Source: Candidatus Omnitrophota bacterium (lineage in GTDB: Bacteria > Omnitrophota > Gorgyraeia > Zapsychrales > Aceulaceae). Taken from it: a stretch of 64,000 nucleotides of DNA. The first letter of the stretch is position 1. Each line of letters starts with the position of its first letter. Under the pieces are notes generated by a model that was given only the letters and a program-made list of their open reading frames with translations, was not told the DNA's origin and did no database searches. The stretch covers positions 72,433 to 136,432 of the forward strand of contig JAQUUP010000001.1 of the NCBI GenBank assembly GCA_028693815.1, written 5' to 3'. The position numbers and the translations under genes are program-made. Below are positions 29,353 through 63,678 of the stretch, one piece after another.

Positions 29353-29367
29353 CCATGTCCTCATTTA

Positions 29368-29557: not shown

Positions 29558-29568
29558 GTCTAATCATT

Positions 29569-33800: not shown

Positions 33801-35417
33801 TTACCCTACCTTTTTTATTTTGGACATTCTCATTTGAGTAAAAGTCGAGAGAATATAAAACATCGTAAAATACAATGTTAGCCCGCTTGAAAATTTATAA
33901 AATATAAATCCTAAAAATATTGGAAAAATCATGGTCATCATTTTTTGTTGCATTATTTGATTTGGATCTGTTGCCGCCATGTTTTTGGATGAAGCCTTTT
34001 GTTGAAAAAACATCGCTACCATCATAATAATTGGCAAAATATTTAATTCATTCCCAATAATCGGAAGCGAAAACGGAAAAATAAACAATCTATCTGGCAT
34101 AGAAAGATCTTTAATCCATAAAAAATTTGCTCCTTTTAAAGATACCGTTCTCCAAAGCGCTTGATATAAAGCAATGAATGCAGGCATTTGTAAGATCATT
34201 GGGAGACAACCACCCATAGGATTTACTGAATTTGTCTTGTACAAATCCATAATCTCTTTGTTTAAGCGCTGTGGATTGTTTTTATATTGTTCCCTTATCT
34301 TTGTAATTTCTGGCTGCAAAGCTTGCATTTTTTTCATAGAAAGCATGCTTTTTATGGTCAGCGGATACGTCACTAAATAAAATAAAATACTGATCATAAT
34401 AATACAAAATCCCCAATTTGGAATAACCTTGTATATCAAGTTCATTGTGATCACAACCAAGTTTGATATTGAATCTAATATCCAATATTTACTAAAAACA
34501 GACACTTTTTCAATTCCAAGATCATATCCGGATAAAATTGTCTTATCTTGAGGACCAACATAAACAAAAGCGTTATAAGAAATTTTTTCTCCAGGCTTCA
34601 TTTCAACATTTTTTGTTTCTAAAATTAAGTCGAGCTGATTTTTTCCAACAGGAACCGTTTTGTAATCTTTTGTTTTAAATTCAGGCTTAACGATAGCACA
34701 AAAATACCGATTTCTAAAAGCAGACCAATCAACATTTCCCATCTTATGAAATAAATTTTTAGAATTAAACTCAATAGCATTATTTTTTCTTATGATTTCC
34801 CCGTCTAAAGAAACGCTATATTCATAAAGTCCGCGTTCGCGAGCATTATTTTTATCATTAATCAATTCGCTTGTTTCAACAGTCAAAGTGTTTATTTTTA
34901 AATTTTTCACTTTGGACATTCCTGAAACATTTTGTATGTTTAATTCAACATTGAAGAGATAATCCTCTTTGGACAAATCATATGTTTTTGTAACTTCATA
35001 TGAATCATCTCTGTAATAAAAAATAACTTTATTGTCCAAAGATTTTCGAAGCGAGAAGGGGTATCTTTCATAACCAGCTAAACCAATAATATTTTCAACC
35101 GGCATGGATTCTTGATACTTCTTAATTGTAATTTTCTTTAAATTACCGCCAATATTTGAAAATTCTGCCTTAAAAACATCGTTTTCAATTATTGTTACTT
35201 CTTCTTTTGCTCCAGAAAAATTTGCTGAATCAGGGGTTGCTTCAGCAACCTCAATATTTGTAAACTCTTTATTGTCAAATACTTGCGTTTCTTCTGCTGA
35301 AGGACCTAAAACAATATTCTTCGCTTCTCCTACAGGGCTTTTCTTTAATACTAAAGCGTTATATCCAAATAATATAACTATTGATATTAATATAGCCAAA
35401 AAAGTTCTTTTTTCCAT
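33801..35417 (-). CDS. yidC: Membrane protein insertase YidC
   Basis: 538 aa. Periplasmic domain plus a conserved C-terminal 5-TM core (PMILQMP...). Confidence 0.9.
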   Translation of the reverse strand: MEKRTFLAILISIVILFGYNALVLKKSPVGEAKNIVLGPSAEETQVFDNKEFTNIEVAEATPDSANFSGAKEEVTIIENDVFKAEFSNIGGNLKKITIKKYQESMPVENIIGLAGYERYPFSLRKSLDNKVIFYYRDDSYEVTKTYDLSKEDYLFNVELNIQNVSGMSKVKNLKINTLTVETSELINDKNNARERGLYEYSVSLDGEIIRKNNAIEFNSKNLFHKMGNVDWSAFRNRYFCAIVKPEFKTKDYKTVPVGKNQLDLILETKNVEMKPGEKISYNAFVYVGPQDKTILSGYDLGIEKVSVFSKYWILDSISNLVVITMNLIYKVIPNWGFCIIMISILFYLVTYPLTIKSMLSMKKMQALQPEITKIREQYKNNPQRLNKEIMDLYKTNSVNPMGGCLPMILQMPAFIALYQALWRTVSLKGANFLWIKDLSMPDRLFIFPFSLPIIGNELNILPIIMMVAMFFQQKASSKNMAATDPNQIMQQKMMTMIFPIFLGFIFYKFSSGLTLYFTMFYILSTFTQMRMSKIKKVG

Positions 35418-35427
35418 AAATTTAATC

Positions 35428-35640
35428 CTATGTTAAAGGGTCAAACCCTCCTCGAGAGAGGGGGGAACAGCGCAAAATTCGACAAATTGCCTTTATAGAG
35501 CCTTTGACAGCCCCATATTTTTGCAAAGCTTCGAGCGCATACTCCGAGCATGAAGGATGAAAACGACACGTACCTGTAAAAAGGCTGTGTTTAATTTTTT
35601 GATATAAGCGTATCAAAAACGATAATATATTAATAATCAT
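35428..35640 (-). CDS. yidD: Membrane protein insertion efficiency factor YidD
   Basis: RFHPSCSEYALEAL signature. Confidence 0.8.
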   Translation of the reverse strand: MIINILSFLIRLYQKIKHSLFTGTCRFHPSCSEYALEALQKYGAVKGSIKAICRILRCSPLSRGGFDPLT

Positions 35641-35665
35641 AATTAGATTTTTTTGAGGATAGATG

Positions 35666-35803
35666 CTAAACTGCTAATTTCTTTCGCCCTTTTTGTCGTC
35701 GGCGTTTTAGAATTTCTCGTCCATCAGGCGTTTCCATGCGGTGGCGAAAACCATGCTTTCTTTTACCTTTTATTTTTGTTGGTGTTTTTAGTGTCTTTTT
35801 CAT
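35666..35803 (-). CDS. rpmH: 50S ribosomal protein L34 (not in the ORF track, below its size cutoff)
   Basis: Minus-strand translation gives [45 protein letters not shown]. Confidence 0.85.
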
Positions 35804-35826
35804 TTTTTGAATTTCCTCGTTAATAA

Positions 35827-36183
35827 AATTAAAAGATACTGGTGCTCAGTATCTTTACTTTTTTTGTAAATATTTGAATAAGTATAACACGACTGATTTT
35901 CTAGTCAAGCTTTTTTCTTTTTTCAAAGGCCCTAAAACAATCTATTCCCAATATGTTAGGAGCCATTTTCATTTTTAAAAACCTTTTATAATCACCAAGG
36001 GGGAGAAGGGGAAGTTTTAGGTTGAAATTCGTTTTTTCTCTGTTATAATAAATTCGCTTTTGCCGCTTCTTTAGAATATTCATTTTATTTTTTTGTGTTC
36101 CTCGAAGGCTCACGGCGAAAAACCATACACTGTTTCTGTGGAAAAGCTGTTAATTCTGTGGATTAACCTATTTAAACCTTTTA
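35827..36183. other. oriC: Putative chromosomal replication origin / dnaA promoter region (rpmH<- ->dnaA divergent intergenic)
   Basis: Canonical rpmH|dnaA-dnaN-gyrB-gyrA synteny. DnaA-box-like 9-mers TGTGGAAAA (36137-36145) and TGTGGATTA (36157-36165) lie just upstream of dnaA. AT-rich tracts. A second AT-rich spacer runs 37549-37698. Confidence 0.45.
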
Positions 36184-37548
36184 TTGTCATCTTTTATGAG
36201 CTTATTAACAATCTGGGAAAACGCACAGCCTCTTATTCGATCCAAAATCGGAGAGACCTCCCATGAAACCTGGTTTTCCATTTTAAGCATCAAAGAAAAA
36301 AATCCTGATACACTCATTATCGAAACACCTGACGAATTTTTTAAAAACTGGATTGTCGAACACTATCTTACTTTCATTGAAGAAGCTGTCAACGAACAAA
36401 CACCAAAAAATATCAATCTTGAATTTGAAGTCAATTCTCAACTTCTCGGCGCCCAAAAACAAAAAAAATTTAGCATATTAGAAAAAAAATTTGAAGAAAA
36501 ACATTCGCCGAAAACAGGGATTGTTGATTCCTCTATCATCACGCCTCGATTTACTTTTGAAAATTTTGTCGTCGGGTCTTCGAACCGTTTTGCTCATGCC
36601 GCTAGCTTTGCTGTTGCTGAATCTCCAGCAAAAGAATACAATCCATTGTTTCTTTACGGCGGAGTTGGGCTTGGAAAAACACATTTAATGCAATCCATCG
36701 CAAATAAAATTAGAATAAGTAAACCAGAAACAAAATTCTGCTATATTTCTTCTGAAAAATTTACTAACGGCCTTATTGATGCTATTCGCCATCGATCAAC
36801 AGCACAATTTCGTCAAAAATATCGTTCTGTAGATGTTCTTCTTGTCGACGATATTCAGTTTATTGCTGGCAAAGAATCAACACAAGAAGAATTTTTTCAC
36901 ACGTTTAATGATCTTCACCAAGCTCGTAAGCAAATCGTTGTTTCGTCGGATAGGCCACCTCAAAATATTCCAAATTTAGAAGATCGGCTAAGCTCTCGTT
37001 TTGCGTGGGGGCTTGTTGCAGATGTTCAACCGCCAGACTTTGAAACTCGCGTTGCTATTTTAAAAAAGAAAATTGAACGTGAGTCAACTAAAGTGCCAGA
37101 TGAAGTTGTTTTTTTTATTGCCGAGCAAATTAAAACAAATATTCGAGAACTTGAAGGGGCTTTGGTTCGAGTTATGGCATATTCTTTATTAGAGGAACGA
37201 ACCGTTTCTTTAGAAATGGCTAAAATTATATTAAAAGATATGGTTAAAGAAACAACTAAGCTAATTACGGTTGATATGATCCAAAAAATTGTGGCTAATC
37301 ATTATAATATTTCTTTACATGACTTAAAAACAACCAAAAGACATAAAAATATTGTTTTGCCTCGCCAAATTGCAATGTATTTATCTAGACAGCTTACGAA
37401 TCTTTCGTTACCTGAAATCGGAACTGCATTTGGGGGTAAAGACCATACGACAGTTTTACACTCATGTAAAAAAATTGGAAAAGAAATAACCGAAAATAGT
37501 ATTTTGAAACAATCCACGGAACAGTTATCCTTGGAGATTAAACAATAA
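36184..37548 (+). CDS. dnaA: Chromosomal replication initiator DnaA
   Basis: AAA+ Walker A GGVGLGKTHL. C-terminal DNA-binding domain. Confidence 0.95.
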   Translation: MSSFMSLLTIWENAQPLIRSKIGETSHETWFSILSIKEKNPDTLIIETPDEFFKNWIVEHYLTFIEEAVNEQTPKNINLEFEVNSQLLGAQKQKKFSILEKKFEEKHSPKTGIVDSSIITPRFTFENFVVGSSNRFAHAASFAVAESPAKEYNPLFLYGGVGLGKTHLMQSIANKIRISKPETKFCYISSEKFTNGLIDAIRHRSTAQFRQKYRSVDVLLVDDIQFIAGKESTQEEFFHTFNDLHQARKQIVVSSDRPPQNIPNLEDRLSSRFAWGLVADVQPPDFETRVAILKKKIERESTKVPDEVVFFIAEQIKTNIRELEGALVRVMAYSLLEERTVSLEMAKIILKDMVKETTKLITVDMIQKIVANHYNISLHDLKTTKRHKNIVLPRQIAMYLSRQLTNLSLPEIGTAFGGKDHTTVLHSCKKIGKEITENSILKQSTEQLSLEIKQ

Positions 37549-37698
37549 TCTTTTTTAATCCACTAGTTTTAAACATGATTTTTTTTTATAAGTTCTTTGT
37601 TTTCTTATAGTTTTGTTCTTATTCAAATTATTAACAGGCACTACGATAACTACAACTATTTTTTTTAAAATAGTTAGAATCATTTTTTTGTAAAGGAT

Positions 37699-38799
37699 GT
37701 GAATATTATGAAAATCAAGATTTTAAAAGATGACTTGTTGTTTGGAATAACAAAGGTACAAAATGTTGTGTCTTCAAAAACAACATTACCAATCCTTTCT
37801 AATATGTTGCTAGAAACAACAAAAAAATCAACAATTCGTCTCTATGCAACAGATCTTGATATTGGAATATCCTGTGAAATACCTGTGCAAATCTTTGAAG
37901 AAGGAGCGATAACTCTTCCAGCTAAAAAGTTTAGTGATATTATTAAAGAATTACCATCGGGGGATATTTTAATTACAGCAAAGAAAAACAATCATGTTGA
38001 AATTGAGGGAGAAAAATGCTTATTCAAATTAATTGGTCTTCCTAAAGAAGAATTTCCAAAATTTCCTGAATTTAAAAATGTAGAAGCTGTTGTGATTAAT
38101 CAAGGAGTTTTGAAAGAAATGTTAAAAATGACTTCTTTTGCTGTATCGCATGAAGAAGCAAGATATATCTTAAATGGTGTTTTGTTGGAGATTGAAGATG
38201 ATATTATACGCCTTGTTGCAACTGATGGCAGAAGATTAGCTAAGATTGAGAAAACAACATCAGCACCAATTAAAAAAGAAACTAAAATCATTATCCCAAC
38301 AAAAGCTGTTTATGAAGTTATGAGAAATATAAAAGAAGAGGGGCAGATTTCTTTGTTGACGAACGCAAACCAACTTTTGTTTGATATTGATCATGTATTA
38401 ATTGCAACACGTGTTATCGAAGGAGATTATCCGAACTATAATCAAGTTATTCCTACTGAACAAAAAAATAAAATTATTATCAATACGCAAGAATTGTTAG
38501 CTGCAATCAAACGAGCTAATCTTTTAACAACACCTGATTTTCAAGCAGTGAAGTTTGAAGTTTTTAAAGATAAATTAGTTGTTTCAAAAATTACTCCTGA
38601 CCTAGGGGAATCCAGAGAAGAAGTAAAAATTGAATATGGCGGCCCAGAACTTATTGTTGGTTTTAATCCGCATTTCTTTATTGAAGCTTTAAAAAATATT
38701 GAATCAGAAGAGATTGGATTAGAACTTTTAGGGGCGGATAAACCAGGTGTTATAAGAATGAACGATTATCTTTATTTAGCGCTTCCAATGCGTATTTAA
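37699..38799 (+). CDS. dnaN: DNA polymerase III beta sliding clamp
   Basis: 366 aa, three-domain clamp. Follows dnaA. Confidence 0.9.
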   Translation: MNIMKIKILKDDLLFGITKVQNVVSSKTTLPILSNMLLETTKKSTIRLYATDLDIGISCEIPVQIFEEGAITLPAKKFSDIIKELPSGDILITAKKNNHVEIEGEKCLFKLIGLPKEEFPKFPEFKNVEAVVINQGVLKEMLKMTSFAVSHEEARYILNGVLLEIEDDIIRLVATDGRRLAKIEKTTSAPIKKETKIIIPTKAVYEVMRNIKEEGQISLLTNANQLLFDIDHVLIATRVIEGDYPNYNQVIPTEQKNKIIINTQELLAAIKRANLLTTPDFQAVKFEVFKDKLVVSKITPDLGESREEVKIEYGGPELIVGFNPHFFIEALKNIESEEIGLELLGADKPGVIRMNDYLYLALPMRI

Positions 38800-38803
38800 A
38801 AAA

Positions 38804-41553
<2,750 letters not shown>

Positions 41554-41592
41554 AGGAAAATAGATATTTTTAAGAAAGGTTAGAAAAAAAAG

Positions 41593-44046
41593 ATGAAAGA
41601 TTTTACGACGAAAGAAAAAATACTCCCAGTTAACATTGAAGAAGAAATGAAGACGTCTTATCTTTCTTATGCGATGAGCGTTATTGTTAGCCGTGCATTG
41701 CCAGATGTTCGAGATGGGCTTAAACCAGTTCATCGACGAGTATTGTATGCAATGAAAGAATTAGGCCTTGAACACAGCAAGAGTTATAAAAAAAGTGCGC
41801 GTATCGTTGGTGAGGTTTTAGGTAAATATCATCCTCATGGAGACACAGCTGTTTATGATACGATTGTGCGTTTGGCTCAAGATTTTTCTATGCGCTATCC
41901 ATTGGTAGATGGTCAAGGAAATTTCGGGTCTGTAGATGGAGATTCTGCGGCAGCTATGCGCTATACTGAAATACGCATGGAATCAATTTCCGAAGAAATC
42001 TTAAAAGATTTAGAGAAAAAAACAGTTGATTTTAGTCCAAATTTTGACAACACTCTCCAGGAGCCGCAAGTATTGCCATCGGCAATCCCTAATCTTTTAG
42101 TTAATGGATCAAGCGGCATTGCTGTTGGGATGGCAACAAATATGGCGCCTCATAACCTAGAAGAAATTTCTGACGGAATTATTGCTCTTTTGGACAAACC
42201 AGAAACAACGATTAAAGAATTAATGAAGTATGTTAAAGGACCAGATTTTCCAACGGCAGGCATTATTTGCGGACGCCAAGGTATTGTAGATGCATATACA
42301 ACTGGACGAGGAAAAATTACTTTAAGAGCGAAAGCTGTGATTGAGAGGCAAAAAGGAAGCAAGGATAGGATTGTTGTTACAGAGCTTCCCTATCAAGTTA
42401 ACAAAGCTAATCTAGTTGAAAACATAGCGCATCTTGTGCAGGATAAAAAAGTAGATGGCATTACAGATCTTCGAGACGAATCTGATAAAGACGGTATTCG
42501 GGTTGTTGTTGATCTTCGTCGAGATGTGCAGCCAGAAATTATTCTAAATTATCTTTATAAACACACTCAGATGGAGACAACTTTTGGAATTATTAATTTA
42601 GCACTAACGAATAATCAGCCTAGAGTTTTAAATCTTAAGCAGTTAATGAATTATTTTCTAGAACATCGTCGTGTTATTATTAGAAGACGAACCCAATTTG
42701 ATCTTGATAAAGCGCTGCGCCGAGCACACATTCTTGAAGGATTAAAAATTGCTTTAAAATTTATCAATCAAATTATTAAAACAATCAAAGAGTCTAAGAC
42801 AGCGCAAGAAGCCAAAAAAGCATTGATGAAGAATTTTGATCTTTCAGAGATTCAAGCGCAAGCTATTCTTGAAATGCAGTTGCAGAGATTAACGGCTCTT
42901 GAACAAGATAGATTGGAATCAGAATATAAAGAACTTTTAAAAAATATTGAGATGTTTCGGTCTATTTTAGGGTCAGAAAAGAAAATAGATGGAATTATTA
43001 AAGAAGAAATTCTTTATATAAAAAAGAAATATGCCGATGAGAGGCGAACGGAAATTGCTGGGAAAGCCGAAGAAATTGAGGTTGAAGATTTGATTGCGGA
43101 AGAAGATATGGCCATCACAATTAGTCATACAGGATATATTAAAAGACTTAGCGTTGATGCTTATCGTAAACAAAAACGTGGAGGAAAAGGTGTTTCAGCG
43201 ATGACAACAAAAGAAGAGGATTTTGTTGAGCATTTGTTTGTTGCTTCATCGAAAGATTATCTTTTGATTTTTTCTGATAAGGGAATTGTTCGTTGGCTTA
43301 AAGTTTACGAAATTCCGGTTGCATCACGTAATTCTAAAGGAAAGGCGATTGTTAACCTTCTTTCTGTTGGAGCTGATGAGCGCATTAGTTCGATTGTGGC
43401 GGTCAAAGAGTTTAGTGACGAAAAGTTTGTTATTGCGACAACAGCGCAAGGAAACATTAAAAAAACAAAACTCTCTGCTTACAGCAATCCTCGAAAAGGA
43501 GGCATTGTTGGAATTACCTTAGAAAAAGGAGATGTTTTGATTGGAACCGATATTAGTGACAGCAGCTGTGAGGTTCTTTTAGCTACCAGGGAAGGAAAAG
43601 CTGTTCGGTTTCATGAAAAACAAATTCGGGATATGGGGCGAAGTGCCAAGGGTGTTCGCGGCATTCGATTAGGGAAAAAAGATGCTGTTGTGAGTATGGA
43701 GGTTATGTCTCCTGGTATCGAAAAAACAGGAAGCACATTTTTAAGCGTAACTTCTAAGGGGTTTGCGAAACGGACAGATTTTTGTGATTATCGCCAGCAA
43801 TCGAGAGGCGGGAAAGGAATTATCAATATTAGTGTCACGGAAAAGAATGGACATGTTGTTCGAAGTCTTTCTGCAACGCCAGAAGATGAGATTATGGCTA
43901 TGACTAAAAAAGGGATGGTTGTTAGATGCTCTGTTAAGGATATTCGGCAAACAGGGCGTAATACGCAAGGAGTCAGGCTGATCAATTTGGACAAAGATGA
44001 CGTTGTTAGTTCTGTTGCAAGTGTTGTAGCTAAAGAAGAGGAGTAA
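41593..44046 (+). CDS. gyrA: DNA gyrase subunit A
   Basis: The [22 protein letters not shown] block spans the catalytic Tyr and the QRDR. C-terminal beta-pinwheel repeats. Confidence 0.95.
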
Positions 44047-53240: not shown

Positions 53241-53696
53241 ATGAATAAGAAGAATGCTCAATCGCCTCTAGAATATATTATGATTATTATTGCTGTTATT
53301 GCGTCGATCACAGCGATGGGGCCGTATGTTATTCGGGGAGTTAATGCTTATATGCGTTCTTGGGAGATTTCAGCTGAACAGACACAAAGAGACACAAGGG
53401 CGCGCTTAAATGCTTGGGAGGTTCCAGGGGCAGAGCCTCCTTTGTCTGTTGAATGTGGATATTTTTCTACTGACCAGAGCGGTTGCAAGGCAGCTGTTGG
53501 TGAAGATGGAAGTCGGTGCTGGTGGTGGCAGCAATACGAAGAAGTGACTGATAATCCTGGTGATTGCGCTGTTACCTTTGATACATGTAGGATGAGAGGA
53601 TCAACAACTTCGGGATTTATTGTTATAAATGGATGCACCATGAGTGATAATTTTTGTAACGTAACATATGACGAGGATTGTAATTTTGCGACTTAG
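53241..53696 (+). CDS. Flp/TadE-like pilin with N-terminal prepilin motif and Cys-rich (8 Cys) C-terminal domain
   Basis: MNKKNAQSPLEYIMIIIAVIASITAMG (A/QSPLEY is a Flp-type motif), then C-rich ECGYF..GCKAAV..RCWWW..CAVTFDTC..CTMSDNFC..DEDC. Confidence 0.55.
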   Translation: MNKKNAQSPLEYIMIIIAVIASITAMGPYVIRGVNAYMRSWEISAEQTQRDTRARLNAWEVPGAEPPLSVECGYFSTDQSGCKAAVGEDGSRCWWWQQYEEVTDNPGDCAVTFDTCRMRGSTTSGFIVINGCTMSDNFCNVTYDEDCNFAT

Positions 53697-53812: not shown

Positions 53813-54778
53813 GTGAAAAAGAAGCAATTATTTATATTTTTTAGTATTTTTATACTTTTATCGACAACAGGTTGCGATAAGTTTTCTTTTTTAGAGGATT
53901 ATTTCCCTTCTCTTAAGAAAAACAAGAAAGAAAAAGTTGTTCAGAAAGAAAATATTAAAAGTGGCCAGAACGAACCTGTTAAAAAAGAAACAATAGTTTC
54001 TGCGAAGCCTGAAGCACCTCTTGCTAAAAATGTTTTAGTAAAAATGGGTGACTGGACGATGACGATTGAAGAATTTAAGGAGAAAACAAAAGGGTTAAAA
54101 GAAGTTTTGCCGGAATACGACGAGAATGACCCTGAAACAAAAAAATTAGTTTTAGAAGAATTGATTCGTCAACAGCTTTTAGTTGAGGCTGCTAAAAAAA
54201 GAGGGATTGATAAAAAAGAAACGGTTGTTGCTGCTATCGAAGAATTCAAAAAAACTCTTTTAGTTCGTGAGCTGGCTGTTGAGATTGCTGAAAGCATTGT
54301 CGTTACAGATCAAGAAGCTAAAACATTTTATGATGAGAATCAAGAATTATTTAAAGAGCCAGATCAGTGGCGTATCCGAGAGATTCTTGTTGACAATGAA
54401 GCAAGAGCAAAAGAATTGGCTGTTGCTCTTTTGCAAGGAGCAGACTTTGCACAAGTGGCTCGAGAAAACTCTATTGCTGAAACAGCTTCTAGCGGGGGAG
54501 ACACGGGATTTGTTGTGGAATTTGAAGATCCAAAAATCCAAAATGCTGTTTTTACATTAGAGCCAGGCTCTGCGAGCAATGTTTTTAAAGGAGACAAAGG
54601 ATATTATATTGTTAAGCTCGAAGAAAAAAAGCAAGGAATAATGCAGAATTTTGAGGATGTGAAAGAAGAGTTAAAAGAAGGCCTTGTAGCGATGAATCAA
54701 CAGCAAGCGATTATTGATTATGTTGAAACTTTGCGATCAGAGGCGAATATTGAAATTAACGAAGATCTTTTAAAATAA
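53813..54778 (+). CDS. Parvulin-type peptidyl-prolyl isomerase lipoprotein (SurA/PrsA-like), GTG start
   Basis: Lipobox LLSTTGC. PpiC domain GGDTGFV...GSASNVFKGDKGYYIVKLEE. Confidence 0.7.
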   Translation: MKKKQLFIFFSIFILLSTTGCDKFSFLEDYFPSLKKNKKEKVVQKENIKSGQNEPVKKETIVSAKPEAPLAKNVLVKMGDWTMTIEEFKEKTKGLKEVLPEYDENDPETKKLVLEELIRQQLLVEAAKKRGIDKKETVVAAIEEFKKTLLVRELAVEIAESIVVTDQEAKTFYDENQELFKEPDQWRIREILVDNEARAKELAVALLQGADFAQVARENSIAETASSGGDTGFVVEFEDPKIQNAVFTLEPGSASNVFKGDKGYYIVKLEEKKQGIMQNFEDVKEELKEGLVAMNQQQAIIDYVETLRSEANIEINEDLLK

Positions 54779-54788: not shown

Positions 54789-55607
54789 ATGGCTATTGAT
54801 TTTAAAAAATTTAATAATAAGCAAATTGGCATTGTTATTTTGGCGGTGATTGCGGGGATTGTGGCCATTGTGTTGACTAATAACTATATCAATACGACGG
54901 TTTCAAAAGGAGCTTCGTCGGAAGAGATTAAGGCTTTGTTTGAAAAAATACAAAAACTAGAACAAGAAAACAAGTCGCTTTATCAGCGACAAGACGCCTA
55001 TGCTGGCCAAATTCAGCAAAGGCTTGATTCGTTTTCCCAAACACAGGCACAACAGCGTCAGGCCCCACCAAAAGAAAACGGAGACATTGTAAAACCTCAA
55101 TCTCTGGCCCTCAAAACACCTTCTGGTAAAAGAGCGATTACGGTTAAGATCGAGACTTTATCTGCTGTTGGAGGCTTGATTAATCCAGGGGATTTTGTCG
55201 ACATTTTAGTTCATATAAAAGCAAATGGTTCAAGTTCTGGAGAAAAAACAACAGTTACATTATTCCAGAATATTCAAGTTTTAGCTATTGGCTATAATGT
55301 TGAGATGCCTGCAAATTTTGAAGCTCAACAAAAAACAGCTACTCTTCCTATAACATTAGCTGTTGATCCAGAACAAGTTGAGATGATTACATTTGCTGAA
55401 ACACATGGAAATCTTCAGCTTGTTTTAAGGGGCCCAAGAGAAACGAGAGAAGAACGTTTGCCATCGGGCAATTGGGATACATTTAACAAATATCTCTTAG
55501 AAGAGCAAGGAGTTGTTGTTAGCTCTCCAGCGTCGCCGAAAGAAACCGTAGATCTTAACGAAAAAGAACAATCTAATATTCAAGTTTTTCGAGGGGGAGT
55601 AGAATAA
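54789..55607 (+). CDS. cpaB: Flp pilus assembly protein CpaB/RcpC (N-terminal TM, SAF and RcpC domains)
   Basis: RAITVKIETLSAVGGLINPGDFVDILV...LFQNIQVLAIGYNV matches the CpaB SAF/RcpC pattern. Confidence 0.7.
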   Translation: MAIDFKKFNNKQIGIVILAVIAGIVAIVLTNNYINTTVSKGASSEEIKALFEKIQKLEQENKSLYQRQDAYAGQIQQRLDSFSQTQAQQRQAPPKENGDIVKPQSLALKTPSGKRAITVKIETLSAVGGLINPGDFVDILVHIKANGSSSGEKTTVTLFQNIQVLAIGYNVEMPANFEAQQKTATLPITLAVDPEQVEMITFAETHGNLQLVLRGPRETREERLPSGNWDTFNKYLLEEQGVVVSSPASPKETVDLNEKEQSNIQVFRGGVE

Positions 55608-55614: not shown

Positions 55615-57255
55615 ATGAAAAAAAATATTTCAAAAAAATATATTGGATTTTTTATTTTTGTCGCGACAGTCTTTTTCTTAATAGCGGCAGCGCCTGAAGC
55701 GTTTTCGAAAAGTTTCAGGGAAACAATTGGTGCTTTTGGAGAGGATACCCTTGAGATGGTCGTCGGAGATCTTGATACAATTTGGACTAAAGAATTGACA
55801 AGGGTTGCCGTTACAGATCCTTCTGTTGCGGATGTGGTCGAAACAAGCGCATCTGAGATTTTAATGTCAGGAAAAAAAGCTGGTAAAACAACTGTTTTTA
55901 TTTGGGATCAATATGGAAAGAGATCAATCGTCGTTTGGGTGTTTGAGGAGAATTTAGATCTCGTCGAAACACGATTGAAATCTCTTTTGCAGAGCGCTGG
56001 CATTAAAGACTTAGAGTTTAAAGAAAACGCACTTGAAGGAAAGATTGTTGTTTCTGGTGAGCTCGATGACGCAAAGAAAAAGGAATTTGATGGTATGGTT
56101 GAGCCTTTTTCAGATAGCATCGTGAATCTTGTTAAAGAAAGAGAAAAAAAAGAGCTTATTGAAATTGATATTCAAATATCAGAGATTAATACAACGGTAA
56201 CAAAGAATTTAGGAATTGAATGGACCAACTCTGAAGGCGGAGGAAGCTTAGAGTACGATGAAACTTTACCAACATTTAATCCTAACGCACCCACTGATTT
56301 TTTCAAAATAGGCGATTTTGCTAGAACCACGGCGCTTAAGGCAACAATCAATGCGCTTATTACTGAAGGAGAAGGAAAGGTTCTCTCTCGGCCAAGAATT
56401 GTTATGAAAAGCGGAGAAGAAGCTAGTTTTTTAGTTGGAGGCCAGATTCCCGTTAGCACTACAACGACAACCGAAGGTGGCAATGTTACACAAAACATAG
56501 AGTTTAAAGATTACGGAGTTGATTTAAATCTTAAGGCTATAGTAAAAGAGGACGATAAGATTGACATTGAGCTTAAGGTTGAGGTAACAGATGTCGACAG
56601 CTCCTATATTGTTTCTGGAAACTATGCCTATACGACACGTACAGCAGAAACAAAGCTTCTTTTGGACAACCTTCAAACCGTTGTCTTGGCAGGATTTATT
56701 AAAGACAATAAAGCAGAAAATATCTCTAGAGTCCCATTCTTGAGTGATATTCCTATATTAGGAGCTATTTTTAGAAATAAAAGCACAGACCCAAATAAGC
56801 AAACAGAGCTTTTCATTACTTTGACGCCTAAAATTATTTCAAGAAACCGTATGGCAGAAAGTGATGATGTAGAAGAAAATATTGTAAAAGCGACTCCAGT
56901 TATTGAGGAAAAGCCCATTTCAACAGCTAAGGAAACATTTCGGTCTATTTCGGTTCCAGCAAATATAGCAAATTATGTTAAAGCGATTCAGAGAAAAATT
57001 GCTGGAAATCTTATGTATCCCGAGGATGCCAGACAGTCCAATTTTCAAGGAGCTGTTGATTTAGAGCTTGTGCTTCTTAGAAACGGCGCTCTTTTGTCCG
57101 CTTTGATAAGCCAATCTTCCGGCTATCCAGTTTTAGATCAAGCTGCGCTTAATACGGCACAGCGTTTTTCCCCTTATGGAAATTTTCCTTCAGATGTTAA
57201 TGCTAGAGAAATAACAGTAACAATTCCTATTGTCTATCGACTAGACATGGATTAA
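55615..57255 (+). CDS. cpaC: Tad-type secretin (CpaC/RcpA) with an added C-terminal TonB-C-like domain
   Basis: Secretin core VLSRPRIVMKSGEEASFLVGGQIPV...RVPFLSDIPILGAIFRNK. The C-terminal 100 aa YPEDARQSNFQGAVDLELVLLRNGALLSALISQSSGYPVLDQAALNTAQRFSPY follow the TonB_C pattern (YP..A....EG.V.....V...G......SSG...LD.AAL.A). Confidence 0.8.
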   Translation: MKKNISKKYIGFFIFVATVFFLIAAAPEAFSKSFRETIGAFGEDTLEMVVGDLDTIWTKELTRVAVTDPSVADVVETSASEILMSGKKAGKTTVFIWDQYGKRSIVVWVFEENLDLVETRLKSLLQSAGIKDLEFKENALEGKIVVSGELDDAKKKEFDGMVEPFSDSIVNLVKEREKKELIEIDIQISEINTTVTKNLGIEWTNSEGGGSLEYDETLPTFNPNAPTDFFKIGDFARTTALKATINALITEGEGKVLSRPRIVMKSGEEASFLVGGQIPVSTTTTTEGGNVTQNIEFKDYGVDLNLKAIVKEDDKIDIELKVEVTDVDSSYIVSGNYAYTTRTAETKLLLDNLQTVVLAGFIKDNKAENISRVPFLSDIPILGAIFRNKSTDPNKQTELFITLTPKIISRNRMAESDDVEENIVKATPVIEEKPISTAKETFRSISVPANIANYVKAIQRKIAGNLMYPEDARQSNFQGAVDLELVLLRNGALLSALISQSSGYPVLDQAALNTAQRFSPYGNFPSDVNAREITVTIPIVYRLDMD

Positions 57256-57278
57256 AAAAGTGATTTTAAAAGGAAACA

Positions 57279-59438
57279 ATGAGCGCAAAAACAACCGTTG
57301 TTTTTAGCACTAAAGGGGGCGTTGGAAAAACTTTTGTTGCCCTTAATTTGGCTGTGGAAATGGCTTCCAAAAGAACAAAAGTTCTTTTGCTTGATTTTGA
57401 TCTTCAGGCGAGCCAAGATTTGGCTAGAACAGCAAATATTAAAACAGAAAAATCTATTGTTGATATTCTTTCTAATAATGAGTCCCTGGAAAATGCAGAG
57501 ATGATTGTTAAGGCGTGCTCTAAACATTCGTCTGGAATTCATTTTCTGCCATGTGTGACTCATGTCGATCAAGTTCCTTTGATTAATCAAGAGAAAATTA
57601 TATTGTTTTTCAAAAAAGTTGCACCTCTTTATGACTATATTATTGTCGACGGAGGAAAGGTTTTTAACGAGACGCTGATTACTGTTTTTGATCAGTCAAA
57701 TCTTATCTTGTTAACGGCAACGCCAGATATTTTAGCTGTTTTTCAGGCCCGATGGTGCTTGGATGTTTTAGAGAGACTTCATTTTCCAAATAGCATTGTT
57801 AAACTTGTTTTAAATCGATCGCAAAGTCGCGGAGGAGTTGCCTGGCAGGAAGTACGCTCTGCTCTCCCCTGTGAAATTTTTGCACAGATTCCATCGGACG
57901 GACATGCTGTTGGGCTTGCACTAAACAGAGGTGTTCCGTGTGTTTCGGATGCACCAGGTAGTCCTGCTAGCGAAGCTGTCAAGAAGCTCGCAGATCGATT
58001 AATCAAAGAAACAGTTTTTATTCAAGGAACAGAAGTTGCTCGCATTCGCACAACAACAAATTCTGGCCAAGAAGAGAATTTCTGGGAAAAGTTGGGAATT
58101 AGTTCAAAGATTTCAGAAAGCAAAGAGGTTTTGTCGGTTGCTCACGAGGATGATGAAATTATTAAGTTAAAGCAAGCTGTACACGACAAACTTGTTGATC
58201 GATTAAATTTAAGTACTATTACAACAGAAGCTTTAAGGGACCCTAAGCAATCTAAGAAAATTAGGGAAAGCACCGAAAAAGTGATTGGCGATCTTTTAGC
58301 TGAAGAGGCAGACGCCCTTATTTCTTCTCATGACGAGAGGAGACGATTGGTTAAAGAAATTGCTGATGAGACTCTTGGCCTTGGCCCATTGGAAGAATTT
58401 TTAGCCGACCCAGAGATTACAGATATTATGGTTAACAATAAAGATGAGCTTTATGTTGAAAAAAACGGACGCATTATTTTAACTAATAAAAAATTTATTT
58501 CAAATGGTCAAATTCGTGCGATTATTGAGCGTATTATAGCTCCTTTAGGACGACGCATTGATGAATCTGTGCCTATGGTTGATGCTCGACTTCCGGACGG
58601 ATCTCGTATCAACGCGATCATTCCTCCTTTGTCTTTAAAAGGACCAATGCTGACTATTCGAAAATTTGCACAAGACAGGATTACCGTTGAAGATCTTCTG
58701 CATATTCATCATTCTGTTTCGCAGCCAATGGTTGATTTTTTAAAAGCTTGTGTTTTGTCGCGAAAAAATATTATTGTTTCCGGTGGGACGGGATCTGGCA
58801 AGACAACATTGCTAAATGTTATTTCTTCTTTTGTCCCGGACGGGGAGCGTATTTTGACAATTGAAGATGCCGCAGAGCTTAAGCTTCGGCAAAGGCATTG
58901 GGGTCGGCTTGAGTCTCGTCCTCCTAATGTTGAAGGAAAAGGCGCCATTACAATACGAGATCTTTTTGTTAATTCTTTGCGCATGCGTCCAGATCGCATT
59001 GTTATTGGCGAATGTCGTGGGCCAGAAGTTTTAGATATGCTTCAGGCGATGAATACTGGGCATGATGGTTCTATGACAACGATTCACGCGAACACAACGC
59101 GGGATGTTTTAGTTCGCATGAGTTCTTTGATTTTGTTAAGCGGCTTAGATCTTCCGCTAAAGGCGATTTATGAAATGTTTTCAACAGCGATTGACATTGT
59201 TGTCCAGATTTCTCGATTTTCAGACGGAACAAGGAAGATCTCAGGGATCACAGAGATTGCCGGATTAACAAAAGAACGCGAAATCATAATGAAAGATGTC
59301 TTTGTTTTTGAACATCAGGGTATTAGTGAATCTGGAGAAATTTTAGGTGAATACAAGGCGACCGGCTATGTTCCAGCTTGTTTTGACGATTTTGCCAAAA
59401 GAGGTATTGCCATCACCAAAGATGTTTTTAATGCATAA
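57279..59438 (+). CDS. cpaEF: Single-polypeptide fusion of a TadZ/CpaE-like ParA/MinD ATPase (N-terminal 270 aa) and TadA/CpaF secretion ATPase (C-terminal 430 aa)
   Basis: N-terminal TTVVFSTKGGVGKTFVALNLA deviant Walker A. C-terminal IIVSGGTGSGKTTLLN Walker A, ILTIEDAAEL Asp box, GHDGSMTTIHAN His box. One uninterrupted 719-codon frame. Confidence 0.8.
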   Translation: MSAKTTVVFSTKGGVGKTFVALNLAVEMASKRTKVLLLDFDLQASQDLARTANIKTEKSIVDILSNNESLENAEMIVKACSKHSSGIHFLPCVTHVDQVPLINQEKIILFFKKVAPLYDYIIVDGGKVFNETLITVFDQSNLILLTATPDILAVFQARWCLDVLERLHFPNSIVKLVLNRSQSRGGVAWQEVRSALPCEIFAQIPSDGHAVGLALNRGVPCVSDAPGSPASEAVKKLADRLIKETVFIQGTEVARIRTTTNSGQEENFWEKLGISSKISESKEVLSVAHEDDEIIKLKQAVHDKLVDRLNLSTITTEALRDPKQSKKIRESTEKVIGDLLAEEADALISSHDERRRLVKEIADETLGLGPLEEFLADPEITDIMVNNKDELYVEKNGRIILTNKKFISNGQIRAIIERIIAPLGRRIDESVPMVDARLPDGSRINAIIPPLSLKGPMLTIRKFAQDRITVEDLLHIHHSVSQPMVDFLKACVLSRKNIIVSGGTGSGKTTLLNVISSFVPDGERILTIEDAAELKLRQRHWGRLESRPPNVEGKGAITIRDLFVNSLRMRPDRIVIGECRGPEVLDMLQAMNTGHDGSMTTIHANTTRDVLVRMSSLILLSGLDLPLKAIYEMFSTAIDIVVQISRFSDGTRKISGITEIAGLTKEREIIMKDVFVFEHQGISESGEILGEYKATGYVPACFDDFAKRGIAITKDVFNA

Positions 59439-59464: not shown

Positions 59465-59806
59465 ATGAGAATTCTTAATTTAACAGAAAAAACAATTGTT
59501 GCAGTAAAAGCAAAAGAGGCTAAAAGTTTTTTAGCTCGCCTCAAAGGTCTTTTGGGAAAAAAATTTTTTGGTCCTGAGGATGCGCTAGTTATCGATGGAT
59601 GTCAGGCGATTCATATGTTTTTTATGAAATTTTCAATCGACGTTCTTTTTATTGACCAAAAAAATAAGGTTGTAGGATTGGTTCAAAACATAAAGCCTTT
59701 TTGCATAAGTCCTTTTTTCTTTAGAGCAAGGCAGGCGATTGAACTTCCTGCAGGAAGCATTGAGAAATCCTCAGTTCATATTGGGGATTGTTTAGAAATA
59801 GAATAA
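59465..59806 (+). CDS. DUF192 family protein
   Basis: ARLKGLLGKK...IHMFFMKFSIDVLFID...ELPAGS matches DUF192. Confidence 0.6.
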   Translation: MRILNLTEKTIVAVKAKEAKSFLARLKGLLGKKFFGPEDALVIDGCQAIHMFFMKFSIDVLFIDQKNKVVGLVQNIKPFCISPFFFRARQAIELPAGSIEKSSVHIGDCLEIE

Positions 59807-60445: not shown

Positions 60446-62080
60446 ATGGGTGTAACGTATAAACTAAAAAAAGAAGTTGTTGATTATATCCTTCTTCAAA
60501 AAAGGACAAGTCCTTCTTTGAGCTGTCGAAAAATTTCCGACTTAGCAAGTCAATTCTTTCAAAAAAAAATTTCAAAATCTTCTGTTAATACTATTCTTAA
60601 AACTTTTCTTTTGAGCAGTCCTATTGGACGCAGGTCGAGAGAAGACAAAAAACAAGAAAAATTTAAAATTCCAGAGTATCGAAAAAAAGAACTTTTTGTT
60701 AATGTGCCAAGGGAGCTCTTAGGCGAGGAACCGGCGGCTGTTGTTGTGCAGGAAAAGAAAGAGTATCCATTAAAGAAGCTGGGATCTTTTATTCTAAAGG
60801 CAGCTGAATTGCAGATAGCAAAAGAAGGGTTTGTAAGCTTTCTTACAGATTCAGCGGCTCAATCAGGTCTGGCAGGGAGTTTTTTGTATGCGCCTTTGTT
60901 TGGTATCAGTGATCAGAGCGTGTTAGCTGAAGAAATAGGTTGGCAAAAAATAAATGGAATAAACGCTTCTCCACCTACGCAAGAAATTCATCAAGCCACG
61001 GCAATGCTAAAGGATCTAGAAAATAAAAAACAAGAAATTAGTCTAAAGTCTTCTGAGATTTTTACAGAGGTCAAGTGTTTTAAATTTATTCTTAAAAATG
61101 GTAATATTTTTTGTATTGACGCGCAATTTAATTCAGTCTGGACAAAAGATAATGTCCATTCTAGCTTTTCTTTGCCTTTAGAGAAATCTCTTGATTTTTT
61201 ATCAAAAAAGATAGCGACTAACATTCGCCCTATTGTCTTGCGATGCGCTCCTGGCATTGAAAGTTTCCCATCTTATTTTTATACCATGTTAGCATGCTTT
61301 GAAGGATTTCCTTCTTACGGGGTCGCTCAGGTTGATCTTATTTCTAAACAAGACGAGATTCTCTCTTCCTTTGACACCGTTCTTCATAAAAGACGTCATT
61401 TCATTACATTTTTACCGAATTCTCATATGATTTTTGCCCAAGCTCTAGAAAAAAAAGGCGTAACACAAGAAAAAGCGTTTAATTTTATAAATCAAAATGT
61501 TTTGTATTCGGAGTCTGATCTTATTATTGAGAATCCTTTACTTGACAAAGAAATTAATTTACGGGCTTTTATTTTAAAAATCGAAGGACAAGAACCGTTT
61601 GTTCTCATAAGCAATATTCCAAAGCCAATTCAAATCGCAGAGCAAATTATCAATCAGTATTTTGCGCAGTGGCCGCATCCTGGGACTGGGCATCAAGATT
61701 TTATGATGACAAAAGAAGAGCCGACAACAAAAGATTGCTCGAATATGTTTTCTACCGACGAGAAGTCAGGCGAGGATGGGGAGTCGATGTTTCTTGGGGA
61801 AAGAAACACATTGGCGCATAATTTTCTAATGAATATGCACCGGTATTGCCGAGAGCATTTCTTTCCATCAAGTTGCAAGCAGTTTTCGTTTAAGGATGCG
61901 CAAAATGTTTTTTATCGTCTTTCTGGGTTCGCAGAGGAACAAGACGGCATTGTAAAAGTATCGTTAATTTTGCCGCAAGAATATACATATATAAAAGAAT
62001 TAAAATATATATTAAGGCGAGTCAATGAGAGCAACGCCTGCTTAAACCAGAAGATCCGGATTTTCTTTGCTAACGCCTAG
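60446..62080 (+). CDS. Hypothetical 544-aa soluble protein with N-terminal helix-turn-helix. Possibly a regulator or a degenerate transposase-like protein.
   Basis: N-terminal LSCRKISDLASQFFQKKISKSSVNTILK is an HTH like those of transposases and regulators. No DDE triad could be assigned by eye. Confidence 0.35.
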   Translation: MGVTYKLKKEVVDYILLQKRTSPSLSCRKISDLASQFFQKKISKSSVNTILKTFLLSSPIGRRSREDKKQEKFKIPEYRKKELFVNVPRELLGEEPAAVVVQEKKEYPLKKLGSFILKAAELQIAKEGFVSFLTDSAAQSGLAGSFLYAPLFGISDQSVLAEEIGWQKINGINASPPTQEIHQATAMLKDLENKKQEISLKSSEIFTEVKCFKFILKNGNIFCIDAQFNSVWTKDNVHSSFSLPLEKSLDFLSKKIATNIRPIVLRCAPGIESFPSYFYTMLACFEGFPSYGVAQVDLISKQDEILSSFDTVLHKRRHFITFLPNSHMIFAQALEKKGVTQEKAFNFINQNVLYSESDLIIENPLLDKEINLRAFILKIEGQEPFVLISNIPKPIQIAEQIINQYFAQWPHPGTGHQDFMMTKEEPTTKDCSNMFSTDEKSGEDGESMFLGERNTLAHNFLMNMHRYCREHFFPSSCKQFSFKDAQNVFYRLSGFAEEQDGIVKVSLILPQEYTYIKELKYILRRVNESNACLNQKIRIFFANA

Positions 62081-62245: not shown

Positions 62246-62401
62246 AGTGAGATTGTTTCCTTTGAATAATAAAGCCCAGAATTTAATCGAGTATGCCATT
62301 GTCATATCATTAGTGGCGGCGGCTATGATTGCTATGAGTACGTATGTTTCCCGTTCAACGCAAGCGATTCAAAAACAGATTGAAGAAGAAATGCGACAAT
62401 A
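62246..62401 (+). CDS. flp: Flp-family pilin (about 51 aa, GTG start; not in the ORF track)
   Basis: VRLFPLNNKAQNLIEYAIVISLVAAAMIAMSTYVSRSTQAIQKQIEEEMRQ*. Motif A/QNLIEY plus a hydrophobic helix. RBS GGGAGAAAAAAA. Coordinates approximate within 1-2 nt. Confidence 0.5.
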
Positions 62402-62437
62402 GCTATGATTTATTATTAATAAAAAAAGGAGGAAATT

Positions 62438-62644
62438 GTGTTAAAACTATTGAGAAATAAAAAAGGGCAGAGCACGTTGGAATATATTCTTTTGATAACA
62501 GCTGTTATTGCGGTGGCTATTATTTTCTTAAATCCGACAACAGGGCAGTTTGGTCGAGTTCTTAATGATACACAGAATACAATCTCGAGTGAAATAGATG
62601 AGGCTGGGGTAGATTTAGCTGGGAATATTAGAGTTTCATTATAA
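62438..62644 (+). CDS. flp: Flp-family pilin (GTG start)
   Basis: LLRNKKGQSTLEYILLITAVIAVAIIFL. The G/QSTLEY motif equals the Flp G/XXXXEY processing motif. AAGGAGG RBS. Confidence 0.65.
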   Translation: MLKLLRNKKGQSTLEYILLITAVIAVAIIFLNPTTGQFGRVLNDTQNTISSEIDEAGVDLAGNIRVSL

Positions 62645-62670
62645 AAGAATAAGCAAAAAAGGAGGAAATT

Positions 62671-62865
62671 GTGTCAAAATTATTGAGAAACAAAAAAGGA
62701 CAGAGCACGCTGGAATACATTCTTTTGGTAACAGCCGTTATTGCGGTGGCTATTATTTTTTTAAATCCGGCAACAGGACAGCTTGGCAATATTCTTGGCG
62801 ACACATACAACACAGTTGCAAACGAAATGAACGCAGCCGCTAACACTTTATCTGGGGCGTTTTAA
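62671..62865 (+). CDS. flp: Flp-family pilin, tandem paralog of 62438 (GTG start)
   Basis: The N-terminal 40 aa are near-identical to the previous gene. Identical RBS context aaaaaaggaggaaattGTG. Confidence 0.65.
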   Translation: MSKLLRNKKGQSTLEYILLVTAVIAVAIIFLNPATGQLGNILGDTYNTVANEMNAAANTLSGAF

Positions 62866-62896
62866 GCTTAACTATAAAAAAGAAAAAAAGGAGGAG

Positions 62897-63274
62897 ATGA
62901 TGATGAGGTTTTTAAAAAACAAGAAAGCGCAAAATGTTGCTGAGTATGCTATTTTGATTGCTTTGGTTGTTGGTGCAATTATTGCTATGCAAACATTTGT
63001 CAAAAGAACCATGCAAGGAAGACTTAGAGATGCTTCGCAGTATTTGACAGATAATAGTAATTTTGGTGCCGGTGGGGCAACTACTTACAGCACTGGACAA
63101 TACGAGCCTTATTATACACAAAGCAACTATGCTACCACGCGCACTGCAAATGAAATGCAGGCAGTTACTGCTGGTCAAGCGAGCTTGATATCAAATACAG
63201 ATACAACAAGAACAGGTTCTTCGAATACGATGTATGACACTACTGCCACTATTGGCAATGGAATAGCGTTTTAA
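62897..63274 (+). CDS. Flp/TadE-like minor pilin (125 aa) with Thr/Ser/Asn-rich C-terminal tail
   Basis: KNKKAQNVAEYAILIALVVGAIIAM (A/QNVAEY). GGAGG RBS. Confidence 0.55.
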   Translation: MMMRFLKNKKAQNVAEYAILIALVVGAIIAMQTFVKRTMQGRLRDASQYLTDNSNFGAGGATTYSTGQYEPYYTQSNYATTRTANEMQAVTAGQASLISNTDTTRTGSSNTMYDTTATIGNGIAF

Positions 63275-63372
63275 TAATGATGTTGGAAAAAAGAAGAAAG
63301 TTTAAGAAGCATAAATAATGGTTTTTGTAAGAGGGTCGCTAATATACATTGAATAAATAAAGAGGAGGGAGA

Positions 63373-63678
63373 ATGCCGTATAGATTAAGAACAAAAACAG
63401 CCCAAAGTACTCTGGAATATGCTGTCCTTATTGTGATTATTATCGGTGCCTTAATTGCTATGCGGACATATTTAAATAGAGGCATTCAGGGCAAGCTTAA
63501 ATCGTCAACTGATGATATTTCTTCAGGTCAGTTTGATCCAAGCGCTACGACGTATTCGAAAGAGACTAACAGTTCTAGCACAACTCGTGAGATCGTTCAA
63601 GACGGCCAAACGAATTCTGCGCTTATCGGGCAAGAGTTAACAAGTGTTCGAGAAGATTCAGCAACTGATATTGAGTAA
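63373..63678 (+). CDS. Flp/TadE-like pilin (101 aa) with Ser/Thr-rich tail
   Basis: KTAQSTLEYAVLIVIIIGALIAM. GAGGAGGG RBS. Confidence 0.55.
   Translation: MPYRLRTKTAQSTLEYAVLIVIIIGALIAMRTYLNRGIQGKLKSSTDDISSGQFDPSATTYSKETNSSSTTREIVQDGQTNSALIGQELTSVREDSATDIE

Follow-up and report, generated by a model that had tools for sequence, protein, structure and literature searches.

A described counterpart of the protein considered here is Pseudomonas aeruginosa RcpA, the secretin of a Tad/Flp (type IVc) pilus machine, which forms complexes of 13 or 14 subunits. The tail that follows the RcpA barrel is unstructured and its last four residues insert into a groove of the lipoprotein pilotin TadD; without these four residues, no secretin forms (PMC10499894). 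At the other end of the protein, a β-hairpin of RcpC completes the sheet of the RcpA N-domain, so that strand docking is already a coupling principle in Tad machines (PMC12307814). Work in Pseudomonas and Caulobacter is only beginning to explain the targeting, anchoring, and alignment of Tad secretins. Tad pili are also the main candidate host-attachment device of the Omnitrophota, which are ultra-small, uncultured, and suspected predators or parasites, and the only member in co-culture expresses its Tad locus while growing with its prey (Seymour et al. 2023). Here, we analyzed a window of 64,000 nucleotides from a Candidatus Omnitrophota bacterium (contig JAQUUP010000001.1, positions 72,433 to 136,432), in which one gene (55615..57255, on the plus strand, like all features below unless stated otherwise) encodes the outer-membrane secretin of a Tad/Flp pilus machine with a TonB C-terminal domain (TonB_C) at its end.

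The open reading frame (ORF) encodes 546 amino acids (aa) and contains a single stop, at its end. Its product matches, at 100% identity, NCBI MDD3374201.1, which comes from an Omnitrophota metagenome-assembled genome and bears the label "TonB family protein." The protein starts with a probable signal peptide (aa 1-~30, 55615..55704; MKKNISKKYIGFFIFVATVFFLIAAAPEAF), read from the sequence with its cleavage site placed without a prediction tool, which lacks both His and an SHLS-type TonB anchor motif. This is followed by a pilus-type N-domain (T2SS-T3SS_pil_N, PF13629; aa 44-102, 55744..55920; 44.9 bits in Pfam, cutoff 23), which is all-β in the structural model and would, by analogy, correspond to the N-domain of RcpA into which the β-hairpin of RcpC docks (PMC12307814). 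Next comes an α/β domain (aa 113-175, 55951..56139) with a weak, sub-threshold match to PF21934. In the AlphaFold model, this domain has a predicted local distance difference test score (pLDDT) of ∼80-87 and consists of H114-127, E134-138, E143-150, H152-165, and E169-175 (H, helix; E, strand), a resemblance on which we label it a putative ring-building motif. The secretin core (PF00263; aa 247-408, 56353..56838) is matched with 143.2 bits (E 7.7e-42, cutoff 27.5).

Beyond the Pfam secretin match, the protein continues for 138 aa, made up of a linker of ∼32 aa, a helix, and TonB_C. The linker or tether (aa 413-444, 56851..56946; MAESDDVEENIVKATPVIEEKPISTAKETFRS) is unconserved and, with pLDDT values below 50, predicted to be disordered. 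The helix (aa 449-464, 56959..57006) is conserved, with the consensus YVxxIQxxIA, in which Y454 and Q459 are invariant. TonB_C (PF03544; aa 466-543, 57010..57243) is recognized by Pfam, NCBIfam, the structural model, and Foldseek alike. A preliminary description of this DNA had put the extension at about 100 aa past the secretin core, which is right about its existence but falls short of its length; the peptide it quoted (YPEDARQSNF...YGNFP) is indeed there, at ∼aa 468-525, and the segment 56935-57255 is in frame with the secretin ORF, corresponding to aa 441-546 plus the stop. As assessed by a whole-protein AlphaFold model built with 39 homologues, confidence is good for the N-domain, the domain at aa 113-175, most of the barrel strands, and the C-terminal domain (pLDDT 88-91).

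Several lines of evidence identify the C-terminal domain. In the whole protein, the Pfam match to TonB_C scores 57.7 bits (E 1.6e-15, cutoff 24.6) and covers profile positions 3-79 of 79. Searched by themselves, the last 131 aa reach 61 bits for the same family (E 1.5e-16), and the NCBIfam model TIGR01352 (tonB_Cterm) gives 49-52 bits for a cutoff of 27.1; these scores are far above chance. The segment displays the TonB_C motifs, i.e. YP, QG or EG in β1, a DG or NG turn, SSG at β2, and helix α2, as well as an APYxxFP loop that is family-specific and a β3 strand, TIPIVY, at the extreme C terminus. When aa 445-546 (102 aa) were modeled alone, AlphaFold returned a pLDDT of 92.5 and a predicted template modeling score (pTM) of 0.82, with the elements in the order helix, short helix, two strands, helix, strand. 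In a Foldseek search against solved structures with this model, the first 24 matches were all C-terminal domains of TonB, HasB, FusB, or TolA. The best was the extended Helicobacter pylori TonB domain 6sly (query-normalized template modeling score (TMq) of 0.80, root mean square deviation of 2.4 Å, 99 columns), and further top matches were 9dc4, 2m2k, 7zc8, and 2gsk. A sequence profile of the segment also matches H. pylori TonB from end to end, the leading helix included (E 2e-13), and the helix at aa 449-464 lines up with that at the N terminus of the extended H. pylori domain. These structural and profile matches mean that the protein ends in a complete TonB-type C-terminal domain, which is more than the resemblance in motifs from which such a domain had originally been proposed; the full-length, above-threshold profile match and the confident model superposing on solved TonB domains both bear that proposal out.

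The same architecture recurs in all of the best-matching relatives. We used two samples, the best 120 protein homologues, which extend down to 37% identity, and a species-level set with one genome per species, consisting of the best 80 of 569 matches. The secretin and TonB_C are both present in 120 of the 120 homologues, and the C-terminal domain is reached in 80 of the 80 loci, which come from independent assemblies; in the only seeming exception (L076), the C-terminal match is missing because of a run of N in the assembly. In addition, a 100% identical protein is encoded on a separately assembled Logan contig. In our own gene, there is no frameshift or stop at the junction, the DNA of 56780-57300 is unremarkable, and no plus-strand ORF of at least 60 aa besides that of the secretin overlaps the junction. 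The idea that two genes, one for a secretin and one for a TonB-like protein, have been merged artificially by a frameshift, a lost stop, or a chimeric assembly is therefore ruled out for all practical purposes by the single ORF shared by 80 species-level genomes and 120 protein clusters of independent origin and by the identical Logan protein. As had been supposed from the one sequence, this is a single gene, and the secretin-TonB_C architecture itself is near certain. In an alignment of 39 members, any two sequences are on average 52.7% identical in TonB_C, 52.3% in the secretin core, 45.5% in the N-domain, and 9.2% in the linker, and 12 C-terminal residues are invariant (Y454, Q459, P469, G479, G491, S502, G503, D508, A511, P520, F524, and P538). 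By this measure, purifying selection is as strong on TonB_C as on the pore.

The protein is a Tad secretin rather than a TonB or a TolA. The solved chains closest to its secretin core are 8jvb (E 8.6e-36) and Pseudomonas aeruginosa RcpA 8odn (E 2.9e-27). It has the pilus-type N-domain PF13629, as opposed to the N0/STN domains of GspD or PilQ, and it falls far short of the cutoffs of the GspD, PilQ, MshL, and SctC equivalog models. The operon also provides the expected company, with RcpC/CpaB, TadZ/CpaE, TadA/CpaF, and Flp pilins. Two hallmarks of Tad systems are missing: there is no short TadD-binding tail of the RcpA type, in the place of which we find the linker and TonB_C, and there are no adjacent tadB/tadC (T2SSF) genes, either among the Pfam-scanned proteins of the window or within 10 kb in the annotated related locus L082. 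On the model of RcpA, the pore would be a 13-14-mer. TonB itself is coupled to ExbB/ExbD by an SHLS motif in its N-terminal transmembrane helix (PMC12204202). The protein has the C-terminal TonB_C but neither the SHLS transmembrane helix nor a proline-rich spacer, and its identity as a TonB energy transducer is ruled out by its His-less, signal peptide-like N terminus, its secretin domains, and a linker rich in E/K/A/S. The name "TonB family protein" given to it by NCBI is thus misleading, because there is no TonB-type membrane anchor and no proline-rich spacer. TolA was rejected as well, since TIGR02794 scores 24-28 bits against a cutoff of 59.45, TolA structures superpose with TMq of 0.55-0.62, below those of TonB, and no tolQRB-pal genes lie nearby.

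Among named relatives, the closest are Candidatus Aceula lacicola (77%) and A. meridiana, both of which were assigned, together with three further genomes of our list of loci, to the class Velamenicoccia, order Zapsychrales, by Seymour et al. Although names in the best 80 of 569 loci include some placeholders ("uncultured Planctomycetales" and one "Elusimicrobia"), most are Omnitrophota, and the informatively named carriers of the fusion among the best 120 homologues and these 80 genomes are Omnitrophota. Within the best 80 of 569 genome matches, the fusion appears to be a lineage-wide trait of Omnitrophota Tad loci. It is found in at least 78 clusters at 50% identity. Two TonB_C domains in tandem are present in 13 of the 78 cluster representatives and in 8 of the 120 close homologues. 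In the latter set, linkers range from 29 to 278 aa (median of 47), are rich in E/K/A/S with 7.7% Pro, and in a few proteins (such as P0019, P0115, and P0116) form K/E/A repeats like those of TolA domain II. A median of one residue follows β3, i.e. TonB_C ends the protein.

When a profile of the C-terminal part was searched against 1.84 billion representative proteins, scores of 108-152 bits per domain were confined to proteins with a secretin core and to short proteins without one (mostly 100-220 aa, probably fragments). The non-secretin proteins in the profile list carry multiple copies of TonB_C with 76 bits or less per copy, except for a few short two-domain proteins that are possibly fragments. 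By its profile scores, the secretin-borne TonB_C is a subtype of its own. A free-standing TonB was considered as the donor of the domain and rejected, because family-type domains (≥108 bits) were seen in this search only on secretins and on the short, probably fragmentary proteins. Separately, many proteins in the library (P0121, P0132, P0136, P0145, and others) have three to seven tandem TonB_C domains and no secretin.

Full-text literature searches combining secretin with TonB_C, and Omnitrophota with Tad or TonB, returned no description of a secretin-TonB_C fusion; the papers found that contain both "secretin" and "TonB_C" concern other matters. A phylogeny of Omnitrophota RcpA leaves TonB unmentioned (Seymour et al. 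2023), and a 2026 preprint lists "TonB-domain" genes beside pilus genes without recognizing them as secretins. Both domain families are textbook knowledge, and public databases already contain the proteins along with precomputed matches to both Pfam families; it is the combination of a Tad secretin with TonB_C that seems undescribed. One practical consequence is that the annotation "TonB family protein" hides a pilus secretin and inflates the apparent TonB content of Omnitrophota genomes.

The secretin gene is part of a module in which a lipoprotein peptidyl-prolyl isomerase (PPIase), CpaB/RcpC, the secretin-TonB_C fusion, a TadZ-CpaF fusion, a DUF192 protein, a small zinc-ribbon protein (on the opposite strand), and a large protein follow each other, an order kept in practically all 80 loci. 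The PPIase (53813..54778) is PpiC/SurA-like and a probable lipoprotein (..TGC followed by D). This conserved upstream neighbor is present in 70 of the 80 loci, in all but one of them immediately upstream of cpaB. A lipobox-like GC[DE] is seen in 55 of 58 orthologues, one orthologue having no lipobox, and between the N-terminal peptide (C-D-x-[IL]-..-YF, with the YF signature in 24 of 58 orthologues, i.e. ∼40%) and the chaperone domain there is a low-complexity, disordered linker. A lipoprotein PPIase is unusual for Tad loci and could be the chaperone or pilotin of the secretin. The CpaB/RcpC homologue (54789..55607), an inner-membrane alignment protein, contains a disordered stretch and ends in a strand that is conserved (..IQVFRGGVE); this end bears the motif kp.IQIFRGG.EL in 61 of 64 orthologues, after a variable acidic/basic disordered linker.

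Downstream of the secretin gene lies another fusion (57279..59438), whose product of 719 aa combines a TadZ/CpaE-like ParA/MinD ATPase (aa 4-154) with the CpaF/TadA secretion ATPase (aa 367-642). It is conserved in 77 of the 80 related loci at 55-87% identity, whereas TadZ and CpaF are separate proteins in classical Tad systems. The DUF192 protein (59465..59806) is assigned to the module from Pfam and synteny. The large protein (60446..62080; 544 aa) belongs to no Pfam family but is found at the same position in 61 of the 80 loci. Its N-terminal ∼90 aa, where there is a weak helix-turn-helix match, are best conserved, and its counterpart in L082, which follows the DUF192 and zinc-ribbon genes, has 978 aa (14641-17577). 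Neither the Pfam-scanned proteins of the window nor the genes within ∼10 kb in L082 include T2SSF (TadB/C), a tetratricopeptide repeat (TPR) lipoprotein (TadD), ExbB/D, TolQ/TolR, or TonB, and the same is true for TonB-dependent transporters. TadB/C may be encoded elsewhere in the genome, as TadBC has been reported in this class (Seymour et al.). In seven loci (L022, L029, L031, L048, L058, L061, and L062), ∼1.1-1.4 kb separate the secretin gene from tadZ-cpaF. An ORF of 391 aa with a P-loop in L022 (11738-12913) was considered as a member of the system and discarded, as it is unrelated and looks like a secondary insertion.

What might a TonB_C domain do on a pilus secretin? The preliminary description had suggested that it anchors the channel to peptidoglycan or to a partner box, and both suggestions are still plausible. 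The C-terminal domains of TonB and TolA pair an edge strand with a short "box" strand of their partner (PMC12204202), and all structurally characterized TonB, TolA, HasB, and FusB C-terminal domains in our fold search bind proteins by strand addition. Edge-strand pairing of this kind makes passive docking the most likely job of the domain, and to a non-energized periplasmic docking module we would give about an even chance of being the right description. By homology to RcpA, the pore would be fringed below the outer membrane by 13-14 (or 26-28) TonB_C modules, hanging on flexible leashes of ∼30-280 residues. Each would bind a short strand from a different protein of the envelope and thereby fasten the pore to that protein, for the sake of assembly, of targeting, or of alignment with the inner-membrane platform. 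Because there is no TonB-type membrane anchor, the modules could not themselves transmit the proton-motive force. Two candidate boxes in the operon, both located at ends of disordered linkers, are the C terminus of CpaB (kp.IQIFRGG.EL) and the N terminus of the PPIase lipoprotein (C-D-x-[IL]-..-YF). A TonB-box-like motif at the mature N terminus of the secretin itself was also considered and dismissed, as this region is unconserved (14% identity).

Several observations weigh against passive docking. A sequence search for the partner found nothing that ties the CpaB or the PPIase peptide specifically to TonB_C, and in loci with two copies of TonB_C neither peptide shows a matching change. The C-terminal strand of CpaB is, by homology, expected to bind the N-domain of the secretin instead of TonB_C, and the YF motif of the PPIase is confined to the minority of orthologues given above. 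The variable tether and the duplication of the domain would fit an abundant, non-stoichiometric ligand, e.g. peptidoglycan, at least as well as a protein partner, and the periplasmic location of the C terminus is expected from homology only.

The docking proposal can be extended beyond this lineage. TonB-type domains may generally dock onto type IV pilus secretin machines, in which case the fusion would be a "Rosetta-stone" clue, the C terminus of CpaB or the N terminus of the PPIase would be the box, and pore assembly or alignment could be independent of a pilotin; we hold this view tentatively and think it rather unlikely. In P. aeruginosa, PocAB-TonB3 is needed for the assembly and localization of type IVa pili, and a contact between TonB3 and PilQ has been hypothesized (PMC5285504). 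If the generalization were true, the same contact made in trans would explain this requirement. The value of the finding would rise if the partner revealed a general contact between TonB domains and secretins. As it stands, the finding overturns nothing, since the domains are known and the function of their combination is a proposal, and for specialists of type IV filaments it is a useful natural experiment more than a surprise.

The abundant ligand just mentioned leads to a different proposal, which we consider rather unlikely, namely that the tethered TonB_C domains form a ring that attaches to the cell wall, fixes the secretin in the envelope, and resists the pull of pilus retraction, a part played for PilQ by its N-terminal AMIN domains. 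A tether that is free to vary between 29 and 278 aa and a domain that is occasionally duplicated suit avidity for a polymeric ligand. The C-terminal domain of E. coli TonB has reportedly been seen to bind peptidoglycan in vitro, a result attributed to Kaserer et al. in 2008. Furthermore, Tad machines have no known component that binds or cleaves peptidoglycan, so this role is vacant (PMC12307814). However, the structurally characterized domains in the fold search are all protein binders that act by strand addition, Pfam finds no LysM, OmpA_C, AMIN, or SPOR signature in the protein, and our literature search gave no support for peptidoglycan binding by TonB_C.

A somewhat less probable function, and in our opinion an improbable one, is that of a built-in pilotin or assembly module, in which TonB_C attracts either a chaperone of the lipoprotein type or a factor for insertion into the outer membrane, so that the secretin is targeted and assembled. 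The obvious candidate is the co-transcribed PpiC/SurA-like lipoprotein, which is encoded in most of the loci and presents an N-terminal peptide on a disordered linker; TonB_C sits at the exact position at which RcpA binds its pilotin, and no TadD-like TPR lipoprotein is encoded within ∼10 kb, be it in the window or in L082. On the other hand, TadD could be encoded elsewhere in the genome, the N-terminal motif of the PPIase is only partly conserved and one orthologue lacks the lipobox, and the Asp at position +2 would retain the lipoprotein in the inner membrane under E. coli rules.

Energy coupling in trans is the least supported function, because no such genes lie nearby. It would have TonB_C pair with TonB, ExbD, or a TolR-type stator, so that the proton-motive force acts on the gate or the localization of the secretin. 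The PocAB-TonB3 requirement could be read this way, TonB-ExbD heterodimers form in vivo according to work cited in PMC9389320, and some linkers, with their K/E/A repeats, resemble TolA domain II. Against this, neither the window nor the conserved module contains an ExbB, ExbD, TolQ, TolR, or TonB gene, and the secretin itself has no motor anchor; we regard such coupling as very unlikely.

The rest of the window adds to the picture of the locus. Downstream of the module, there are at least five pilin-like ORFs of the Flp/class III signal type (51, 68, 64, 125, and 101 aa; 62247..63678), which share the N-terminal motif K-x-(G/A)-Q-x-x-x-EY; two are above the Class_IIIsignal cutoff, and the rest have sub-threshold matches to Flp_Fap or none. 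Upstream of the PPIase gene, an ORF of 151 aa (53241..53696) has a Flp-like N terminus (NAQSPLEYIMIIIAVIA), a Cys-rich C-terminal part, and no Pfam match, so that it is a putative pilin from its motif. To judge from these sequences, the pilin repertoire would be unusually large for a single Tad locus. The Tad module is located ∼17-27 kb from dnaA. The chromosomal origin region (33801-44046) contains yidC, parA, and parB on the minus strand and dnaA (36184), dnaN, gyrB, and gyrA on the plus strand, with a switch in gene orientation and a change in the sign of the GC skew at ∼36-38 kb. The Tad locus of V. archaeovorus LiM (12382-29832 in CP019384.1) may be at a similar distance from the origin. 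Farther away, two adjacent paralogues of 492 and 486 aa on the minus strand (18680-21675), with weak matches to β-roll ("grass antifreeze") and YadA-head repeats, may be surface adhesins. A stand-alone PilZ-domain protein of 131 aa (12591-12986, minus strand), which adjoins the genes for a ymdB-like phosphoesterase and RNase Y, hints at cyclic di-GMP (c-di-GMP) signaling in a small genome.

Compared with known systems, the Omnitrophota protein shares with RcpA (8odn) and the CpaC-type secretin (8jvb) its secretin core, its pilus-type N-domain, and an operon with RcpC/CpaB, TadZ, TadA/CpaF, and Flp pilins. The differences begin after the barrel, where RcpA has a short tail that binds the TPR lipoprotein TadD and the Omnitrophota secretins have a tether of ∼30-280 aa with one or two TonB_C domains. 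They extend to the locus, which has a TadZ-CpaF fusion, no TadD-like gene in the vicinity, and no TadB/TadC next to it. Together with TadZ-CpaF, a TonB-type connector in place of the pilotin-binding tail represents an alternative solution within this lineage, and hints at the contacts that such a pore makes in the envelope.

The C-terminal domain has the fold of the TonB domains of H. pylori (6sly/5lw8), Neisseria meningitidis (9dc4/9ddz), and E. coli (2gsk/2grx), of HasB and FusB, and of TolA domain III. With the TonB domains, it shares the motifs YP, EG-β1, and SSG-β2, α2, the C-terminal β3, and the preceding helix, whereas the APYxxFP loop and an invariant PIVY in β3 set it apart. TonB is held by an inner-membrane anchor coupled to ExbBD; in Omnitrophota, the domain is instead carried by an outer-membrane pore, on a spacer that is not proline-rich. 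In PilQ, the secretin of type IVa pili, N-terminal AMIN domains on a flexible linker bind peptidoglycan and have a fold unrelated to TonB_C. The likeness, by analogy, would be that a flexibly linked extra domain in the periplasm connects the secretin pore to a different layer of the envelope, although AMIN is N-terminal on PilQ and TonB_C is C-terminal on the Omnitrophota secretin. TonB3 of P. aeruginosa resides in the inner membrane as a protein of its own, with an ExbBD-like motor, whereas only the C-terminal domain is present here, fused in cis to the secretin. In the gliding machine of Myxococcus, TonB_C in GltG and GltJ is likewise a modular periplasmic connector outside of classical nutrient import, and TonB9 and TonB10 of Bacteroides thetaiotaomicron are a precedent for tandem TonB_C domains in one protein. 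However, these four proteins are anchored in the inner membrane, are associated with a motor or have no known role, and none is a secretin.

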